A DNA stretch of 64,000 bases from a phage. Both the position numbers and the translations under genes were made by a program. Shown one piece after another: positions 3,414 through 33,845 of this stretch (its first letter is position 1; the number at the start of each line of letters is the position of its first letter). The notes below the pieces were generated by a model, which was given only the letters and a program-made list of their open reading frames with translations, had not been told where the DNA came from and did not search any database. Location of the stretch: sequence record PZ445450.1; one strand, given 5' to 3'.

Positions 3414-3668
3414 ATGAAAATTACTCTGAAGCCAGAATGCGTTGAAAATGACCGAGCTTTTAAAGATTGCACAATCGGTGCAATTTATGAAGCAGAGTTT
3501 TGTGAGAACCCTTTGGTAAAAGCCCTTCTGGAAGAAGGAGCTCCTCTATCACAGGAAGAGCTTGATGAGTTGGAAAACTCAGCACAGTGCCTTACCTTTA
3601 AAGATGATGAAGGAGACTCTGTCTGGTGCACTGTTAATGAAGTAGTTTTTGTAAAACCTGAACATTAA
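3414..3668 (+). CDS. hypothetical protein, paralogue of 3732..4004
   Basis: RBS taaggagacc; shares KP(E/D)..E.D.AF(K/R)DCT and KDD(E/Q)GD motifs with the next gene. Confidence 0.55.
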   Translation: MKITLKPECVENDRAFKDCTIGAIYEAEFCENPLVKALLEEGAPLSQEELDELENSAQCLTFKDDEGDSVWCTVNEVVFVKPEH

Positions 3669-9838: not shown

Positions 9839-10167
9839 CAGAGATCATCGTTTCAACTGCAGGGTATGTATTCCTGACAATCATTGCGTTGGCTATTCTG
9901 GTGGCGGTGTATGGATTTGTTATCCTGCCTATTCTTGAGACATTTAGTTTGTGTCGGTGTTGGAGAAAAGCTTACGGACCACAACCGTGGAAAGACTGGT
10001 TCCATTTGGTGCGTATAGCGTTCTCTTATGCCTATGACCACTCTAGCAGTGCATGCGTAACCGGGTACCATGCCTACAACTGGAACTGGGAAGGGCTGGG
10101 GAGATGGACTGTTACAAAAACTATACCCTTACGGTTGTATAAAGGAAAGAACAAACTGGGCACCTGA
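9835..10167 (+). CDS. hypothetical membrane protein
   Basis: ATGA overlap; hydrophobic helix VFLTIIALAILVAVYGFVILPIL. Confidence 0.45.
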   Translation: MTEIIVSTAGYVFLTIIALAILVAVYGFVILPILETFSLCRCWRKAYGPQPWKDWFHLVRIAFSYAYDHSSSACVTGYHAYNWNWEGLGRWTVTKTIPLRLYKGKNKLGT

Positions 10168-10197
10168 TATTTTTAAGTTATCAGGTTGCTAGAGATC

Positions 10198-10229
10198 AGG
10201 AGGATTTCTAAAATGGATTTCCTCCTTTT
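10198..10229 (+). terminator. rho-independent terminator
   Basis: aggagga ... tcctcct stem followed by ttt; ends plus-strand block 1. Confidence 0.5.
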
Positions 10230-10478
10230 GATATTTCACCGGACCAGATATTTTAAAATTCTTAGAAAATCAGAAAATGGATCGAAAACTAAAATGGATT
10301 TTTCAGAGTAGGCGCGACAAGCTGAATCGCTCATCCTATCGTTTGCACCATATTCTAGACCACCATTACAGATTTCCCGCACATGCTCACATCCTTCTAC
10401 TAGAACTTCCTCCACTTACCCTTGACTTTTTATGGTAATAGTCTAACCACTATCTTGAGGTTGCGGTACAGCTTTCCG

Positions 10479-25907: not shown

Positions 25908-26213
25908 TTATTCTACAGAGCGTTTGAACAGAATGTCTGCCTCAGACATGTGCTCAACCTCTTCTTCGATTTTAGCTCGACGTTTTTCAGCCTCATAGCG
26001 AATATCGAACTCGGTAGCCACCAGAGATTTGATGAATTTAGGAGAATACAGATGATCCTGCTTCTCAACAAGAATGATATCCTTGATGGCATCTTTCAGA
26101 TCTTTAATCTGAAGCTGGAGTTCCACCAGTTCTTCGATTGTTTTGCGAAGGCGATCACGTTCTGCAGTGTCAGAAGGAAGAGAGGTGAACAGTTCAACTT
26201 TAGATTTAGCCAT
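25908..26213 (-). CDS. hypothetical charged helical protein
   Basis: 101-aa ORF. Confidence 0.5.
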   Translation of the reverse strand: MAKSKVELFTSLPSDTAERDRLRKTIEELVELQLQIKDLKDAIKDIILVEKQDHLYSPKFIKSLVATEFDIRYEAEKRRAKIEEEVEHMSEADILFKRSVE

Positions 26214-26241
26214 AGTAGGAGTCTCCTTATGTTGTTTTAAA

Positions 26242-26493
26242 TTAACGTTCTACAAAAATACCATTCAGTTCAATAACCAGGAATTTCTGGTCTTCACTAT
26301 CGTCTCGTGCCAGTACCTCACAGACGTATCGGTCATCCCCATCATCATCGCAGTCAAATACAAGACTGAGGACTTTATCATGGTAAACCTTCGCCACTAC
26401 CGCCTCGTAAGTATTGCCGATTGTGAATCCAAGATAATCTCCGATGCATTTGACAACAACATGGTCTCCAGCATTTAAGTCAATCTTTGTCAT
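26242..26493 (-). CDS. hypothetical protein
   Basis: aaggagcgcag RBS before internal ATG of track ORF 26242..26559. Confidence 0.5.
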   Translation of the reverse strand: MTKIDLNAGDHVVVKCIGDYLGFTIGNTYEAVVAKVYHDKVLSLVFDCDDDGDDRYVCEVLARDDSEDQKFLVIELNGIFVER

Positions 26494-26648
26494 TACTGCG
26501 CTCCTTGGGTAATAATACTGTATGTAAAACTTTAACCAGAGATGTGAATAACGCCCCAAAACACACCGATAGCACTAAAACAGACAAGGCCATCATTAAA
26601 GCTTCAGTAAAATCAGTCACTCCTCACCTCTTGTTAGTCACTATACTG

Positions 26649-26912
26649 TCATTTATCCTTGCCGTCAAGAACTTTTTTAAATCTTTCAGGGATATCTCCT
26701 GTTCTTAGATAGTTCATGACCTCGCAAGGTTCCCACTTGAATTTCTTACAGAGCAGGACGGCTGAGATTGTTTCATTGCGAAAAGAAAGGATATTAATAT
26801 CCCACTCTGAGAACCCCAACTTCCGAAGGGTAGCTATAGAAATCCTCACCGCAACCCAGCAGCAAAAACATGCAACAAACGCCACTGCTACAACCCACAT
26901 CAGGATGTTCAT
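26649..26912 (-). CDS. hypothetical membrane protein
   Basis: N-terminal helix ILMWVVAVAFVACFCCWVAV. Confidence 0.45.
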   Translation of the reverse strand: MNILMWVVAVAFVACFCCWVAVRISIATLRKLGFSEWDINILSFRNETISAVLLCKKFKWEPCEVMNYLRTGDIPERFKKVLDGKDK

Positions 26913-27001
26913 ACAAGCACCTTACTGAAATACAAGACACAGTGTTAAGGTTACTGACCAGCAAATAATTAACAGAACTGTTGCAACCTTGGCAAGATTT
27001 A

Positions 27002-27289
27002 TCATAGTGCCTCTAAGATTTCATATCCATCTGGTCGGAATACAAGCCACTCCGTGGCTCCGTTTGGTCGATACGCTTTATACAGAACAACCTGATCTCG
27101 GCACATGCACATAGCTACATAGTTTTCATCCACACCTGCAGCCTGCATTGCAGCTTCTTCTCCGGCAACTGCTTTGCTTACAACCTCCTTGGTAGGCAGG
27201 TGTGCGATCAGTTCGTCACCATCATTAACTCCAAAATGGCTGAGCTCCCCATTGGTATCTTTAATCTTAATCTTAACCAGATCTTTCAT
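27002..27289 (-). CDS. small acidic protein, possible member of the MK(I/V)K...EVVEE family
   Basis: Starts MKDLVKIKIK; acidic; contiguous with family members. Confidence 0.45.
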   Translation of the reverse strand: MKDLVKIKIKDTNGELSHFGVNDGDELIAHLPTKEVVSKAVAGEEAAMQAAGVDENYVAMCMCRDQVVLYKAYRPNGATEWLVFRPDGYEILEAL

Positions 27290-27618
27290 TAGTCTTCCTC
27301 CAGGTTCAAAGGCCCTAAGATTTCATATGCCAGATTAGAAGTTACCAGAGGGTCTTCTGCATCTTTAGTATTATACCACCCGTGAATAACCAGAGTCCCA
27401 CTCTGTTTCATATCCAACTGGAACTGTTCTGCAGTTTCCTCCTCCATCTCTAAGATTTCCATAAGGTATTTGATGTTAGGAAGGTATGCAGCTGTTACAG
27501 TCCCCTCTACCAGACCTTCAGGCCAACCTACATCTGGATGACAAGTAGGAACCAGGTTGGTCAGCTTAATGGTGTACGCTTTTTCTGCACGAGCCTTCAG
27601 TAACGGGTCAATCTTCAT
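27289..27618 (-). CDS. hypothetical acidic protein
   Basis: 109-aa ORF; starts 1 nt after the upstream stop. Confidence 0.5.
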   Translation of the reverse strand: MKIDPLLKARAEKAYTIKLTNLVPTCHPDVGWPEGLVEGTVTAAYLPNIKYLMEILEMEEETAEQFQLDMKQSGTLVIHGWYNTKDAEDPLVTSNLAYEILGPLNLEED

Positions 27619-27968
27619 TATTCGTCCTCCTCTTCGGTGCCTGCTTCCAGTAATAAGTTAAGAATATCTTCTGCACAAGGCTCATAGAACTCTTGGCCTT
27701 CATTATCGATGATTTTGTAGTCATCTCCACGAATAATCAGGGGATCACTCTCAAAATTATCGAGACCTTTAACAACGACAACACGATCGATTGCCATCAT
27801 TGTAAGAACTTTATCGACATCTTCCTCTGCTACACCATACTGCAGCAGAATGTCCTTGGTAGGAGGAACAGCATCCACCACAACACCGTTACCAAAACCT
27901 TCCGGCAAGTTAGCTAAAATATCTTCCGGAACCACATTAGTATCAAAACCGGTAATTTCTACTTTCAT
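27618..27968 (-). CDS. small acidic protein, family member
   Basis: Starts MKVEITG; acidic C-terminus EAGTEEEDE. Confidence 0.5.
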   Translation of the reverse strand: MKVEITGFDTNVVPEDILANLPEGFGNGVVVDAVPPTKDILLQYGVAEEDVDKVLTMMAIDRVVVVKGLDNFESDPLIIRGDDYKIIDNEGQEFYEPCAEDILNLLLEAGTEEEDE

Positions 27969-28229
27969 TTACAGCACCTCTTCGTCAACTACTTCATAAA
28001 AATGGCCTGGGATTGCAATAGCGTTCTCACCTTCACCTACAAACACAGTTCCATCAAGAATCAACATCATAAGAATTTCTGTAATATCCTCTTCCGGAAC
28101 GTTGCCAAAACCTTTAATCAGCTCGTAGGTTGGGAGATTTACCTCTAAGATGTCACCATCTTTAGAACGGAAATCAACACCGTCCTGAATCTCTGCCGTT
28201 TCAAGGTTTTTCAATTTAATCTTCATCAA
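27969..28229 (-). CDS. small acidic protein, family member
   Basis: MMKIKLKNLE ... FYEVVDEEVL. Confidence 0.55.
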   Translation of the reverse strand: MMKIKLKNLETAEIQDGVDFRSKDGDILEVNLPTYELIKGFGNVPEEDITEILMMLILDGTVFVGEGENAIAIPGHFYEVVDEEVL

Positions 28230-28305
28230 TCAGTCTCCTGTCTTGTTAAGATGAAGGTATTATTTCACACAGGGTTGGCGTTGTCAACACCTGTGTGCAA
28301 GAAAA

Positions 28306-28701
28306 TTACTGAAACAGTGTGAATAAATTACCTTCCGGTGGGAACTTATCTGCCAAAAACGGTGTTAGCACAGTAGCCTTCTGAAGATCTGGGGTCCACT
28401 CGTTGTTCAGAACATCCCAATAGTACGCAATGTTGCTGTGTGGGTGCCGCATTACGAACTTTTTCCCTTCGTAGTCAGTTGAAACCTCTACAGAAGAAAT
28501 AACAACAGAATCTTCAAGAGTTTCTTCATAGAAAGATCCGCCCTCGAATTTCCAACGAGATGCAAGAGCTCCTGCCTTAAACGCTGCAGATAACGGACTG
28601 TCTGCAAGAACATACATTTCTTGCACTCTGTCACTGCGATCTTTGCTTCTTACGTTGTATACAGTGTCTGAGCTATACTCAACACGGTATAGACTTACCA
28701 T
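28306..28701 (-). CDS. hypothetical protein
   Basis: 131-aa ORF. Confidence 0.5.
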   Translation of the reverse strand: MVSLYRVEYSSDTVYNVRSKDRSDRVQEMYVLADSPLSAAFKAGALASRWKFEGGSFYEETLEDSVVISSVEVSTDYEGKKFVMRHPHSNIAYYWDVLNNEWTPDLQKATVLTPFLADKFPPEGNLFTLFQ

Positions 28702-29033
28702 TACCGAACCTCCTCAATAACTTCCACATCTGAACCTACTATAAATGCAAAAGGACAGGTTTCAGGAAAGACATCCGGATCGCCGCCAAGCTTGCTAACA
28801 ATTTCTCCACCACTAATAAACACAAGCTCACCGATATTCATCAGGTTGCTGAAATAGTACCCATAATGATTAAAGAATGCAGCAGGGTCAGGTAGACTAG
28901 TGGCCTCAAGCTCTACATCGGTTGAGGTTACTTTCTTATCATAACCTCTCGCCTTTTGAGATGCAAGATCTGCAGAATCCTCAGGCGACCGGAGATGCAC
29001 AGGAATTGTTTCACCAATAAAACGTACTTTCAT
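28701..29033 (-). CDS. small acidic protein, family member
   Basis: Internal ATG (MKVRFIG) chosen; track start is TTG inside the upstream gene; ends DVEVIEEVR. Confidence 0.45.
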   Translation of the reverse strand: MKVRFIGETIPVHLRSPEDSADLASQKARGYDKKVTSTDVELEATSLPDPAAFFNHYGYYFSNLMNIGELVFISGGEIVSKLGGDPDVFPETCPFAFIVGSDVEVIEEVR

Positions 29034-29037
29034 ATTA

Positions 29038-29301
29038 TCACCCAACAACCATAGCTTCAAAAGGAGTCATGAACGAATAAACGGCATCATCATCTGCTTC
29101 AGGGAATGCTCCCAATGACTTCAGGTCTAAGCCCTTGACAAATACAAGGTTTTGATCAAAAGCTTCTTGCGGATCAATCCGATACATATCCCGTAGGATA
29201 TCGCTTACCTCCTCATCAAGAGGTGAGTATGCTGTGCACGTTTTTCCGATCAAGCTTTGAGAATCAGGGTATCCACCTGAAGTTTTAAAATAAACAATCA
29301 T
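29038..29301 (-). CDS. small acidic protein, family member
   Basis: LVFVKGLDLKSLGAFPE core shared with paralogues. Confidence 0.5.
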   Translation of the reverse strand: MIVYFKTSGGYPDSQSLIGKTCTAYSPLDEEVSDILRDMYRIDPQEAFDQNLVFVKGLDLKSLGAFPEADDDAVYSFMTPFEAMVVG

Positions 29302-29394
29302 ATAGTATCACCTCTGGCAAGAATGGGGATTCCTTTCCCACAAGTAATTACAAACTTTTCTTCTTATTGAGGCAGTATGCTAATCCAAGCAGGA

Positions 29395-29664
29395 TTATTC
29401 CTCTACAACCTCATACACATCAGGAGTTACAATCAACTCTTCTCCGTTACCCGGTGCAACAAACACCACCAAACCTTCAGGTGTGTGCTTTTTAGCCATC
29501 TCGATAACATCTTCTCGCAGAGCTGGCTCCATCAGATCAAAACCTTCACCCAGGGCATCACGAACCACCTTCATGTAGTCTACTGGTTGTGCTTCAACGA
29601 TCATGCCTTCAACCAGTCCACAGTTTTTGTCTGCCAGCTCAGTTTTGAATAATTTAATTTTCAT
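29395..29664 (-). CDS. small acidic protein, family member
   Basis: MKIKLFKTEL ... DVYEVVEE. Confidence 0.55.
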   Translation of the reverse strand: MKIKLFKTELADKNCGLVEGMIVEAQPVDYMKVVRDALGEGFDLMEPALREDVIEMAKKHTPEGLVVFVAPGNGEELIVTPDVYEVVEE

Positions 29665-29801
29665 TTAGAGGTCTCCTCAATTATTTGATATTAATAGCCG
29701 TAACCTAACACATTAACTACAACTGCGATTGCAAACATAATTTCAAAGCATGCAATCTCTACATTTGGGACTAGTTTCTTAATCACGCCCATTGTAGCAC
29801 C

Positions 29802-30119
29802 TCATTCTCCAAAGTCAATCTTTACTTTGCCTTTCCCCTTACCTTTCTTTCCACCACATTTAGCCAACTGACGTGCTGCAACATCTACCATACGGTCAGT
29901 TGCCTCGTAAGCATCACTGCCTTTAGCTTTGGCAATAACTTCTTTTCCGGAAGTGTCAAAAATGAACGCCATAACTTCCTGGTGATCATTTTCAACTTTT
30001 ACACTCACACGTGCATAGTTGGCAGAGGGGTGCAAACGCTCCAGCTTAGACATTTTGTGGGAAATGAAAGACACCATACCTTCAGTGATTTCTACGTTGC
30101 CAGTGATTTCAATTTGCAT
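29802..30119 (-). CDS. hpf: ribosome hibernation promoting factor / RaiA (YfiA) family homologue
   Basis: MQIEITGNVEITEGM...KLE...VKVE...AKAKGSDAYEATDRMVDVAARQLAK parallels E. coli HPF MQLNITGNNVEITEAL...KLE...LKVE...ASAEGQDMYAAIDGLIDKLARQLTK; Lys/Gly-rich tail. Confidence 0.75.
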   Translation of the reverse strand: MQIEITGNVEITEGMVSFISHKMSKLERLHPSANYARVSVKVENDHQEVMAFIFDTSGKEVIAKAKGSDAYEATDRMVDVAARQLAKCGGKKGKGKGKVKIDFGE

Positions 30120-30201
30120 AACGTGTTCCTTTTAAAGAAGAGGGAACCAAACCCTCTTTGAAAACAATGATACTAAATCTGAAGCGTTGTGTCAACAGTT
30201 T

Positions 30202-30492
30202 TTACAGCTTGTTGTCGATAGTTTTTAAAATATCTACAGCAAGATCTGCCATTTTTCGAACATACTCTGCAAACTCAACAGGATCCTTGATCAAAGAATT
30301 CACAGGGTCGTACCCTAGAGCGTTCAAAATGGCTGCAGCATCTACAACCTTCTCATCATTTGCGAAGATCTCTCCGTCAAACTTGTAGGTCCATTTTGAG
30401 TCAACCTTAGCAGAGCAGGGTTTGTCCATGCTTGTTACACCATCGTCTTTAAACTCTCCTGCGTTATCCATATTCAGAACTAAATCCATCAT
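30202..30492 (-). CDS. hypothetical acidic protein
   Basis: 96-aa ORF. Confidence 0.5.
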   Translation of the reverse strand: MMDLVLNMDNAGEFKDDGVTSMDKPCSAKVDSKWTYKFDGEIFANDEKVVDAAAILNALGYDPVNSLIKDPVEFAEYVRKMADLAVDILKTIDNKL

Positions 30493-30509
30493 AGTGGCAC
30501 CTCACTGTT

Positions 30510-30986
30510 TCAGTTTAGCTTTTCTTCAACAACCCCATAGCTTGGGACAGAGTCAAGAGCTTTCTGGTTTAAAAGTGGTGTAGCAGGATCTGCAATGACA
30601 TCCCAAGTCTCATACAGACCGCACTCATGATACCCCCAACGCTGCTCAATTGTCAAGCTGAGTGGCAAATCTTTACCGTCACAAACAACCTTCCATCTAC
30701 AAATGCTGGTATCTGGGCGTATCTGTGCACGGTATATCTGTACAAAATCCAATTTGAATTTGAGGTACTCGTCATACAATTTAAGCACAAAGCTCTCGAT
30801 TTGTGGAGACACTTTTGCAGCAAACTGTGCGTATTTGTACTTGCACTGGATGATCTTTCTGCGTTTTGCAGTTAAATTTTTTGCCGCCAGTTGTTCTTCA
30901 GTGTATCTCCACCTACGATCAACAAACGCAACAGGGTCTTTGTCCCCATAGAGGTCTTCCCAGTTAATCAGAAGCATACCTGTCAC
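30510..30986 (-). CDS. hypothetical protein
   Basis: 158-aa ORF. Confidence 0.5.
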   Translation of the reverse strand: MTGMLLINWEDLYGDKDPVAFVDRRWRYTEEQLAAKNLTAKRRKIIQCKYKYAQFAAKVSPQIESFVLKLYDEYLKFKLDFVQIYRAQIRPDTSICRWKVVCDGKDLPLSLTIEQRWGYHECGLYETWDVIADPATPLLNQKALDSVPSYGVVEEKLN

Positions 30987-31216
30987 TCCTCCACAACTTC
31001 AAGGCCTTTACCGCCTCGCTCTGGCAGATTACTTAAAGATAGGTAATACATATAATCAGGAGAGATCCTGCCAGACTCTGCACCTGCAGCTAGTAAATCC
31101 TTCCCTTTAACCAGGACAACATTCTCGTTTGCAGATAGCCGTTTTGCTTCCACAATTTTACCAACACAGTCAACCAAGGAAGGGTACCCTAAATCTGTAA
31201 GAAATTTAACTTTCAT
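30983..31216 (-). CDS. small acidic protein, family member
   Basis: MKVKFLTDLGYPSLVD ... GLEVVEE. Confidence 0.55.
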   Translation of the reverse strand: MKVKFLTDLGYPSLVDCVGKIVEAKRLSANENVVLVKGKDLLAAGAESGRISPDYMYYLSLSNLPERGGKGLEVVEE

Positions 31217-31255
31217 GCTACCTCCTGCTTCTACCGTCCCTGGTAAGATAAATTA

Positions 31256-31657
31256 TTACTGAACAGAGCGCGGGGCTGGGAAGGATAACTCTTCTAAAGA
31301 GAAGATTTCATTTCCTACCACCCAAGTTGCTGGATCATCTGGGTCAACAGGCTGGATAATCATTACCTCATCCGCCTCGCACACACGTTTCCCACCTATA
31401 GTAGCGGAGTCAGCCACTAGCATACGAGGCTCTTCAGAAATGCACAGGTAACCTCCTCGGCCCACTGTTCCTTCCACAGGATCCTGCCCTTTGACCACAA
31501 TGAATACCTTCTCTCCTGTGGCGATATTACTTTGCACACTAACAGTTTGACCAACTTTAGATGTACCGATCTTAGTGGCTTCAAACATTAAATCCCGAAT
31601 TACTGTTGCATAGTTGCCGGACACTTTCTTACCTTCTTTAGTAATCTCAATCTTCAT
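31256..31657 (-). CDS. hypothetical protein, possibly a distant family member
   Basis: Starts MKIEITKEG, same N-terminal pattern. Confidence 0.45.
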   Translation of the reverse strand: MKIEITKEGKKVSGNYATVIRDLMFEATKIGTSKVGQTVSVQSNIATGEKVFIVVKGQDPVEGTVGRGGYLCISEEPRMLVADSATIGGKRVCEADEVMIIQPVDPDDPATWVVGNEIFSLEELSFPAPRSVQ

Positions 31658-31929: not shown

Positions 31930-32244
31930 CTACCAGGTTACTGTCAAGTAGGCAACCGTATTATTTTTCTCTGGGGAGATGCCAACAACATCTACCTGCA
32001 GACCTCCTGCCCTTAAATCTCCAACAATGTGCGGGAAGTAATCTGAGAGATGCGAGGGTAGATTTATCGAAAATCCGCACCCCAGAAAGCCTGCTAACGC
32101 TTTATTTTGTATCTCTCCTACAATCGCATCATAAATGGAGTTAAGCTCGTCAGGAAGCGTTACAGGACGTTTTAGCGCTAACTGGTGTAATTTGTCCTTA
32201 GCACTCATTTTCATTTCAGGTCTACCTCTGGGGGTGCCAACCAC
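31930..32244 (-). CDS. hypothetical protein
   Basis: 104-aa ORF. Confidence 0.45.
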   Translation of the reverse strand: MVGTPRGRPEMKMSAKDKLHQLALKRPVTLPDELNSIYDAIVGEIQNKALAGFLGCGFSINLPSHLSDYFPHIVGDLRAGGLQVDVVGISPEKNNTVAYLTVTW

Positions 32245-32744
32245 ATAAACGGCGGCAAGTCTAAACGGTTTTTCTTATCCCACACAAAATATGCATATGC
32301 TTGCCCGTCAGTTCTGCCGTTTGATTGAAATGATGGACGCTTAGATATTGTGATCACAGTAGTAGGTGCATTATCAAGCCACCATTCAAATCTGGCTTTG
32401 CTTTCCAGAAAATTAAGACGCAAAAGCATAATAACTACGTCAGCATCTTTCAACGCCTTGTCTACAAACTCACGAGCCAGGCTGTATGGTGGGTTGGTGA
32501 TAATACAGTCAACATGGTTGTATTCTGTATTCAGATAGTCAACACCTTCTTGGATTTCTCCCCATGCAGATCCTAACGGCATACGGGAGTAGAACACACC
32601 TGAGGCACTATTCCTGCAAGGCTCTAAGTAGGTCCAGTCTTCTGGGAACGGAATAAGGTCATACAGCCCTTCTGCACACCACTCCGGTGTCACATACTCA
32701 TCGTAGGCGTTACGTTGTTCATCAGGTTTTCGAGCACAAGTCAT
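32211..32744 (-). CDS. DNA methyltransferase (amino-methyltransferase, NPPY motif)
   Basis: VDCIITNPPYSLAREF catalytic motif; Dam-like size. Confidence 0.7.
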   Translation of the reverse strand: MTCARKPDEQRNAYDEYVTPEWCAEGLYDLIPFPEDWTYLEPCRNSASGVFYSRMPLGSAWGEIQEGVDYLNTEYNHVDCIITNPPYSLAREFVDKALKDADVVIMLLRLNFLESKARFEWWLDNAPTTVITISKRPSFQSNGRTDGQAYAYFVWDKKNRLDLPPFMWLAPPEVDLK

Positions 32745-32795: not shown

Positions 32796-33845
32796 TTAAG
32801 CTTCTTCGATAATTCCTGCACCCAGGATTTTTTCATTGAGCTCTTTTGCTGTTTTAATAATATTGTCCACCAGACGCTTGCGAGTCTTATCTTTTACCTT
32901 AACCTCTTCACCGCCGTTCAGGGTTGTCTTCAATTGGGACAGAATGTCTTGAAGTTCAACGACAGAGAATCGCTGCAGATCTTCTGAGGTAATCTCGCCT
33001 AAGGCAATCTTAACGGTCTCACCACTTTCCATCTGCAGGTTCAGGAACACAGTGTGAACATCACCTTTCGAACCACCCGCTTTTGCAGATTCAACAGCAT
33101 GAACTAGCTCATCTAAAGAGGTGCACTGGTGAATCTCCGGAAGACCTGCTTCACCTAGCACACCTTCTTCATCACCTTTTGCCAAAAGCTTTTTAGGTTT
33201 TTGTCCGTTCTGGATGCGTTGTATGTTGCCTTCATCCAGAATAATAGCTCCAGTACGTGCTGCCAGCTCTTCTCCGTCCAACCACACTTCGCCACCAGCT
33301 GTGATGGATGCGATCTCATCTTCTGTCAGCACTCCACCGTAGTATTTTTCAATCAGGCGTTCAAAACGTTTTTTCCAGTAGCTGACCTGAGTATTCATGT
33401 TCACACCGTTACCATAAGTGCCACCTTGATAGTAGTGGAACATAAATTCTGTGTCCGGAGCCACAGTGCGTTCTTTGCAACCCAGCCATAAGATTGTTCC
33501 CGCAGAGCAGCACATCCCTTCAGCATGTGCAACAACGCTTGCCTGAGACTCGCGGAATGCCTGTAGATAAGCCATTGCAATGTGCACGCAACCCCCAGGG
33601 CTATTGATGATCACCCGAATGCTTTCTTCCGGCTGAGCCATACGGATCGTCTGCAGACGAGACATATGATCCTGCAGGTCTTCCAAATCGTCGATATAAA
33701 GAACGTGGTCAACAACAGGTGTTGGGTAGCTGTATGTTTCCATGATACCGCCCGGCATACCAAACATTTTATTACTCATAGGTTCGAAACCGTTCTGTTT
33801 TTCTTTCATGCCGTGTACCATGGTGCTGCGAGGTGTTAAATTCAT
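32796..33845 (-). CDS. ClpP/S14-like serine peptidase with C-terminal extension
   Basis: INSPGGCVHIAMAYL and GMCCSAGTILWLG resemble the ClpP oxyanion and active-site Ser regions. Confidence 0.6.
   Translation of the reverse strand: MNLTPRSTMVHGMKEKQNGFEPMSNKMFGMPGGIMETYSYPTPVVDHVLYIDDLEDLQDHMSRLQTIRMAQPEESIRVIINSPGGCVHIAMAYLQAFRESQASVVAHAEGMCCSAGTILWLGCKERTVAPDTEFMFHYYQGGTYGNGVNMNTQVSYWKKRFERLIEKYYGGVLTEDEIASITAGGEVWLDGEELAARTGAIILDEGNIQRIQNGQKPKKLLAKGDEEGVLGEAGLPEIHQCTSLDELVHAVESAKAGGSKGDVHTVFLNLQMESGETVKIALGEITSEDLQRFSVVELQDILSQLKTTLNGGEEVKVKDKTRKRLVDNIIKTAKELNEKILGAGIIEEA

Follow-up and report, generated by a model that had tools for sequence, protein, structure and literature searches.

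Two old families of small, mostly acidic proteins with a predicted SH3-like fold in the accessory gene block of an rV5-like phage

Small acidic proteins acting as inhibitors or DNA mimics include T7 Ocr, T4 Arn, phi29 p56, PBS2 Ugi, AcrIIA4, and AcrIF2. The proteins described here, encoded between positions 27,002 and 31,657 of a 64,000-nucleotide stretch of phage DNA (record PZ445450.1; the whole stretch is called the window below), presumably resemble them, at least by description, in being small, acidic, encoded in an accessory region, and clustered with other small genes. A first-pass annotation had indeed read them as a single paralogous family with similar termini, tandemly expanded under diversifying selection and possibly composed of DNA mimics or other inhibitors of host proteins. 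DNA comparison identifies the window as a Vequintavirus (an rV5-like E. coli myophage), and we find that its minus-strand accessory gene block houses not one but two families, A with five genes and B with three, each predicted with high confidence to fold as an SH3-like five-stranded β-barrel. Phages of the rV5 type are in wide use for the biocontrol of E. coli O157 and as members of phage collections, although over half of their genes lack annotation. The outcome is a modest clarification, in which previously ungrouped phage proteins receive a known fold, and not the description of a fast-evolving DNA-mimic locus.

The minus-strand open reading frames (ORFs) listed by the first-pass annotation are present, with lengths of 77-133 amino acids (aa) and mostly acidic compositions (isoelectric point, pI, of 4.05-5.42, with 27618, 27969, and 29038 at 4.05-4.08, 27002 at 4.77, and 30983 at 5.42; genes are named here by their lower coordinate, see Table 1). 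BLASTP among 18 local proteins yielded weak matches only. When the Smith-Waterman scores of all 153 pairs were compared with 300 composition-preserving shuffles per pair, the top pair was 27618-27969 (p = 2e-5), followed, at p <= 1e-3, by 27002-27618, 29038-30983, 27289-27618, 27969-29395, and 27002-27969. Similarity past composition therefore holds for subsets of the proteins (these six pairs, p = 2e-5 to 1e-3) but not for the whole list. Five of the six best pairs fall within a single five-gene set, family A (27969, 27618, 27289, 27002, and 29395, or A1 to A5), whose five-way alignment is collinear end to end. Hidden Markov models (HMMs) built leaving one member out, with the best of 2000 shuffles (8-14 bits) as reference, retrieved 27618 at 21.6 bits (9.6 for the shuffles), 27002 at 20.7 (8.2), 27969 at 19.8 (10.5), and 29395 at 15.8 (13.7); the score of 27289 was marginal (9.7 bits, exceeded by one of 2000 shuffles). 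Profile-profile comparison with HHalign ties A2 to each of A1, A3, A4, and A5 (P = 97.7% for A1-A2, 75% for A2-A4, and 61% with E = 1.1e-5 for A2-A3) and A1 to A5 (P = 91%).

Family B is made up of 30983, 29038, and 28701 in the window (B1, B4, and B5) and of five genes in most relatives. Besides its pairwise similarity to 30983 (p = 2.4e-4), 29038 weakly matches phrog_5009, the PHROG of 30983 (E = 1.5e-4), and jackhmmer over all fetched loci unites the three proteins and adds two paralogs of 75 and 84 aa (rV5 ORF140 and ORF141; subfamilies B2 and B3), both belonging to a segment that has been deleted from the window phage. HMMs built leaving one subfamily out recovered 30983 at 28.3 bits (9.6 for shuffles), 29038 at 20.4 (9.8), and 28701 at 18.8 (6.7), and HHalign linked B3 to B4 (P = 74%) and to B5 (P = 76%), with 28701 aligning over its full length.

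The two families are well separated from the rest of the window and, at the profile level, from each other. All window ORFs of 45-170 aa were scanned against both profiles, which retrieved exactly five A and three B genes with a wide gap between the weakest member (E = 1e-17) and the best non-member (E = 2.5e-3). In an HHalign comparison of all A and B subfamily profiles plus seven control families from the same region, all within-A and within-B pairs ranked at the top (P = 60-98% within families), followed by a weak A5-B1 match (E = 0.006) with the controls just behind. The best links between the families (E = 0.002-0.015) are comparable to those of the control families, and the link grew no stronger when profiles were built from the pooled sequences of each family. 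By sequence, the idea of a single family accordingly finds no support, its five core genes being a mixture of A and B. Among the possible additional members that had been proposed, 27002 belongs to A and 28701 to B, but 31256..31657 (minus strand, 133 aa, phrog_5748) does not belong to either (E = 0.043 against both profiles) and jackhmmer searches with it retrieved its own orthologs only. We also rejected 30202, 25529, and 26242, as well as 28306..28701 (minus strand, 131 aa; HHalign P < 0.4% against both families). The latter has a 132-aa paralog of its own (rV5 ORF142; comparison locus L001, 7653-8051), partly deleted in the window, and the two constitute a third small paralogous family of the block. 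An 84-aa ORF far from the block (3414-3668, plus strand, pI 4.17, MKITLKPE...NEVVFVKPEH) gave no significant match to the A or B profile; by eye, it has a strand, helical insert, and strand pattern like that of family A.

AlphaFold2 models built on the family alignments support the same assignment of fold for both families. The model of 27969 (predicted local distance difference test score, pLDDT, 89.4; predicted template modelling score, pTM, 0.76) has the order strand-strand-helix-helix-strand-strand-strand, and that of 30983 (pLDDT 95.5, pTM 0.82) is an SH3-like barrel; structure prediction, which the first-pass annotation had proposed as a check, thus gives confident five-stranded, partly open antiparallel barrels with the SH3 strand order. 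The conserved core comprises an N-terminal MK[IV]K[LF] strand, a G-x-[IV]-[VL]-E-A strand, a [VL]V-x-V-K-G-x-D strand, and a C-terminal [YL]E[VI]V strand, and the paralogs differ in their loops and in the insertion between strands 2 and 3. At this point, family A has a helical hairpin of ~25 residues and the longer B subfamilies carry extra residues; family B also shows short helices in the first loop, which in 28701 holds a 20-aa insertion, and after strand 3, and 27618 has an extra acidic C-terminal tail of ~27 aa. The SH3, SH3b, and KOW models of Pfam did not match even at E <= 1, NCBIfam gave no match, and a sequence profile search of the PDB only chance-level ones. Foldseek comparison of family A with viral models retrieved one good match, an 86-aa protein of Vibrio phage Vc1 (BFVD A0A6M5CA15; template modelling score 0.73, 31% identity, E = 3.6e-5), and a weaker one from the Vequintavirus Shigella phage CM1 (83 aa). 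The Vc1 match, between predicted structures, suggests that family A extends past the rV5-like phages.

Sequence searches with family A stayed close to these phages. Its profile had 13 matches among 1.84 billion representative proteins; beyond the window's own clusters, they are diverged counterparts of all five paralogs, which leave the family alignment collinear when added to it, and those that we looked up, or that lie at loci in our comparison set, come from rV5-related contigs. Two metagenomic contigs, L007 and L004, share the neighbourhood of the window genes (ClpP-like protease, methyltransferase, and the hibernation factor HPF). Neither a distant DNA search of a phage collection nor tblastn at E <= 10 found family A outside Vequintavirus, the sole other match being a chance-level one in a Cellulophaga phage, and a word-indexed search of 5.8 billion proteins with 27969 and 30983 retrieved close orthologs only (at least 74% identity). 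In the related phage L005, an A2-like gene (P0038, 90 aa; 10001-10273) stands by itself within another accessory cluster, on the downstream side of the DNA polymerase gene and with Ead/Ea22, DUF7238, and a faint Macro-domain match among its neighbours. We considered L005 as an unrelated backbone with a lone family A gene but dropped this idea because it shares 85-91% identity with Vequintavirus in helicase and polymerase. In the rV5 record itself (DQ832317; L014, 1622-1892), the 27002 ortholog shows a gap of 2 nt and is entered as two ORFs, ORF153 and ORF154, owing either to an error in sequencing or to its being a pseudogene. For family B, homologs of B1 with 41-49% identity occur as single genes in the temperate phages mEp021, mEp554, and mEp013, where they sit between the Q and lysis genes, as morons typically do.

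In the diverged contig L007, the best match of each window paralog is its positional one-to-one ortholog and gene order is kept, with ortholog identities of 29-57% in family A and 50-75% in family B. It follows that the duplications are old and predate the split from the L007 lineage. Tandem expansion stands as paralogy among adjacent small acidic genes but not as a recent event. Pairwise ratios of nonsynonymous to synonymous substitution rates (dN/dS, NG86 method, nine Vequintavirus genomes), which are gene-wide values, are 0.04-0.16 for A, with 0.04 for 29395, and 0.07-0.08 for B, and 0.01-0.24 for unrelated neighbours. Such low ratios indicate constrained, real coding genes, each copy being under purifying selection, and do not support the gene-wide diversifying selection that had been put forward. 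In phage phiWec189 (L003, 6001-6249), the position of 27969 is taken by an allele with just 51% protein identity, its DNA aligning over the last 45 nt only, between flanking genes with 97-99% identity; this looks like a local cassette replacement.

The genes are tightly packed, with stop-start adjacency or 1-nt overlap along 27969-27618-27289-27002 and 29038-28701-28306: 27618 starts directly after the stop of 27969, and the start of 27289 overlaps the 27618 stop by 1 nt. In this arrangement the Shine-Dalgarno sequence (GAGGAG) of the downstream gene sits in the last codons of the upstream one, so that the recurrent '...EE' C-terminus is in part the ribosome-binding site of the next coupled gene, and the [YL]E[VI]V ahead of it is the last barrel strand. 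MK starts, for their part, are found in 22 of 125 crude window genes and are weak evidence on their own. The shared termini that had suggested a single family are informative in part only. The A1-A2-A3-A4 run, with 27969 first, lies behind a σ70-like promoter; the rV5 record labels this site 'Sigma70-type promoter P150', and a promoter is predicted there in Gotham. Near-consensus σ70-type promoters also precede the HPF gene (promoter at 30195..30167) and 29395. E. coli-consensus promoters are scattered across the rV5 genome (PMC3606486).

A common origin of A and B is likely but unproven. They share the position of the insert, and their weak HHalign alignments stay in the register expected from the structures all the way from strand 1 to strand 5; in addition, the ten top-scoring sub-threshold matches of the B HMM among 414 ORFs include three A genes out of five. 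They would in that case be very distant relatives. We lean away from, while taking seriously, the alternative that A and B are unrelated and owe their similar termini to hydrophobic end strands, to a Lys-rich second codon that favours initiation, and to a terminal GAG-GAG that is the Shine-Dalgarno site of the next gene. It accords with a profile-profile link that is not significant and does not surpass the controls, with the ribosome-binding sites lying within the C-terminal Glu codons of 27969, 27618, 27289, 28701, and 30983, with the frequency of MK starts given above, and with the SH3-like barrel being a very common small fold; the shared insert position and strand register speak for common descent. 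At the other extreme, A and B might be one ancient phage-specific SH3-like superfamily forming a modular 'one scaffold, many targets' inhibitor array, which we find unlikely. Such a superfamily would have ~10 copies per rV5-like genome and single copies in mEp021-like phages and perhaps in a Vibrio phage, and each copy, through its distinct loop or insert surface, would inactivate a target of its own, be it a host protein or a defence system.

Concerning function, we favour, as probable on balance, the interpretation that these two old, constrained SH3-like families serve as an early-made battery of protein-binding modules. Binding is suggested by the combination of a common core, variable loops and inserts, old conserved paralogs, and an accessory block behind host-type promoter sequences. 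The host RNA polymerase would transcribe the genes early, with protein amounts roughly coupled, and the paralogs, alike in their barrel but each with its own surface of loops and insert, would each bind a different partner, of host or phage, host takeover or counter-defence being candidate purposes; in this respect, the earlier idea of inhibitors of host proteins was a reasonable guess. Several observations weigh against the binding-module interpretation. Searches of Pfam, NCBIfam, PDB sequences, and annotated PHROGs gave no match of known function, and literature searches found no publication describing these ORFs. Early expression rests on promoter consensus only, and a promoter scan did not exceed shuffled sequence (27 sites versus 20.7 +/- 5.0 expected); the B1 homologs of mEp021-like phages lie outside the early region, in the Q-lysis interval. 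Moreover, merged A and B profiles gave E = 0.015, with controls at 0.018-0.02, which is not significant, and the shared termini could be convergent through β-strand and translation-signal constraints. We rank three other roles below protein binding as less likely: mimicry of DNA, which nothing specific supports, binding to RNA or ribosomes, and assembly into a hetero-complex. That the coupled paralogs 27969-27618-27289-27002 form one hetero-oligomeric complex, for which their stop-start adjacency or 1-nt overlap and a gene order kept in L007 and largely in L004 could be invoked, is quite unlikely, given the lone A2-like copy in another accessory cluster of L005 and the absence of A3 from L004. 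That the locus holds one tandemly expanded family under diversifying selection, made up of acidic DNA mimics or of inhibitors of host proteins, is very unlikely: the genes are adjacent, the proteins are acidic (27618 has a net charge of -22 with 25% Asp+Glu, 27969 of -13), and the divergent phiWec189 allele would fit, but acidity is not distinctive, as 37% of the small window proteins have a pI < 5, and no known DNA mimic is among the fold or sequence matches listed. We give least credence to nucleic-acid- or ribosome-binding regulators (KOW, Sm, or OapB-type barrels) that would reprogram translation together with the neighbouring hibernation factor.

Table 1. Features of the locus (window coordinates unless a comparison locus is named)
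Feature	Position	Strand	Properties	Remarks
A1	27969..28226	-	85 aa, pI 4.08, net charge -13	rV5 ORF150; ATG at 28226
A2	27618..27968	-	116 aa, pI 4.05, net charge -22, 25% Asp+Glu	
A3	27289..27618	-	109 aa, pI 4.42	not listed by the first-pass annotation; weakest member
A4	27002..27289	-	95 aa, pI 4.77	
A5	29395..29664	-	89 aa, pI 4.44	rV5 ORF146; three genes apart from the other four A genes
B1	30983..31216	-	77 aa, pI 5.42	phrog_5009, E = 8e-36
B4	29038..29301	-	87 aa, pI 4.05	rV5 ORF147
B5	28701..29033	-	110 aa from ATG at 29033	rV5 ORF148
B1 homologs	L008 4001-4228 (mEp554); L009 4001-4228 (mEp021)			between Q antiterminator and lysis genes
Terminal GAG-GAG/GAA-GAG (Glu-Glu)	27969-27990; 27618-27640; 27289-27310; 28701-28720; 30983-31000			Shine-Dalgarno of the next gene
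σ70-like promoter	28259..28287	-	TTGACA-17-TG-AATAAT, 11/12 consensus	upstream of the A1-A2-A3-A4 run
HPF/RaiA ribosome hibernation factor	29802-30119		Pfam PF02482, 48 bits (cut-off 23.7)	mid-cluster
N6-adenine methyltransferase-like and ClpP-like protease genes	32211-32744 and 32796-33845			just upstream in transcription order
In-frame chimeric ORF	30510-30986		158 aa	junction 30581-30595

Regarding the setting of the locus, the region 26000-32000 matches ~120 phage records, all of them rV5-like Vequintavirus phages of E. coli, the closest being vB_EcoM_Gotham (99.8% over 26000-30596). Every gene from 24 to 58 kb of the window lies on the minus strand, and in Gotham, MaxBurger, FV3, and rV5 the ORFs listed by the first-pass annotation are coding sequences with the label hypothetical protein. 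Their rV5 counterparts are ORFs 146-154, which fall within genes 82-163, described as one transcription unit (PMC3606486). Eighteen GenBank MG0656xx 'Campylobacter phage' entries (host C. jejuni) match this E. coli rV5-like sequence, those listed with about 95-97% identity to the window; entries with this label have at least 96% identity to the coliphages, and their host labels look doubtful. The HPF/RaiA gene already carries its annotation in rV5-like phages. The ClpP-like protease matches PF00574 (47.7 bits) and the Pfam matches of the methyltransferase-like gene are weak, under the cut-off; with 85% (methyltransferase) and 70% (protease) identity in L007, both genes are conserved far above the small ones.

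The chimeric ORF marks the junction of the deletion in the window phage. Its N-terminal part (~145 aa) derives from the MaxBurger 'putative glycosidase' gene bas54_0165 and its last 36 aa from the 132-aa paralog of 28306, and a 15-nt sequence, TAGCAGGATCTGCAA, is common to both ends of the missing segment. Compared with Gotham, the deletion takes out 3840 bp, and compared with MaxBurger, 1977 bp; the segment lost comprises, in Gotham, two family B paralogs, an HNH endonuclease, and ~10 small ORFs. None of the ~120 related records matches across the junction in a single piece.

Eight 'hypothetical protein' families of rV5-like phages (ten in most relatives) are thereby reduced to two with a confident common predicted fold, and an orphan block becomes a defined candidate set for host-takeover or counter-defence screens; should the function prove ordinary, the gain would be a modest improvement in annotation. 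The locus also carries a caution, namely that recurrent acidic C-termini in packed phage genes can be the next ribosome-binding site read as Glu-Glu. Compared with known systems, A and B resemble in fold the SH3-like small barrels (eukaryotic SH3, KOW, PsaE, the PhnA C-terminal domain, and bacterial SH3b) but differ from them in being strongly acidic, in having their own helical inserts, and in showing no sign of proline-peptide binding. If they did constitute a single superfamily, the logic of their inhibitor array would be comparable to that of anti-CRISPR clusters. In PHROGs, each window protein corresponds end to end to its own entry (E = 1e-36 to 1e-75), with phrog_5009 for B1, 12359, 12155, 12457, 12794, and 11868 for the five A proteins, and 13920 and 13661 for B4 and B5. 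These entries are treated there as eight separate unannotated families whose sole cross-link is the match of 29038 to phrog_5009 mentioned above, and what is new here is to group them as two families that share a fold.

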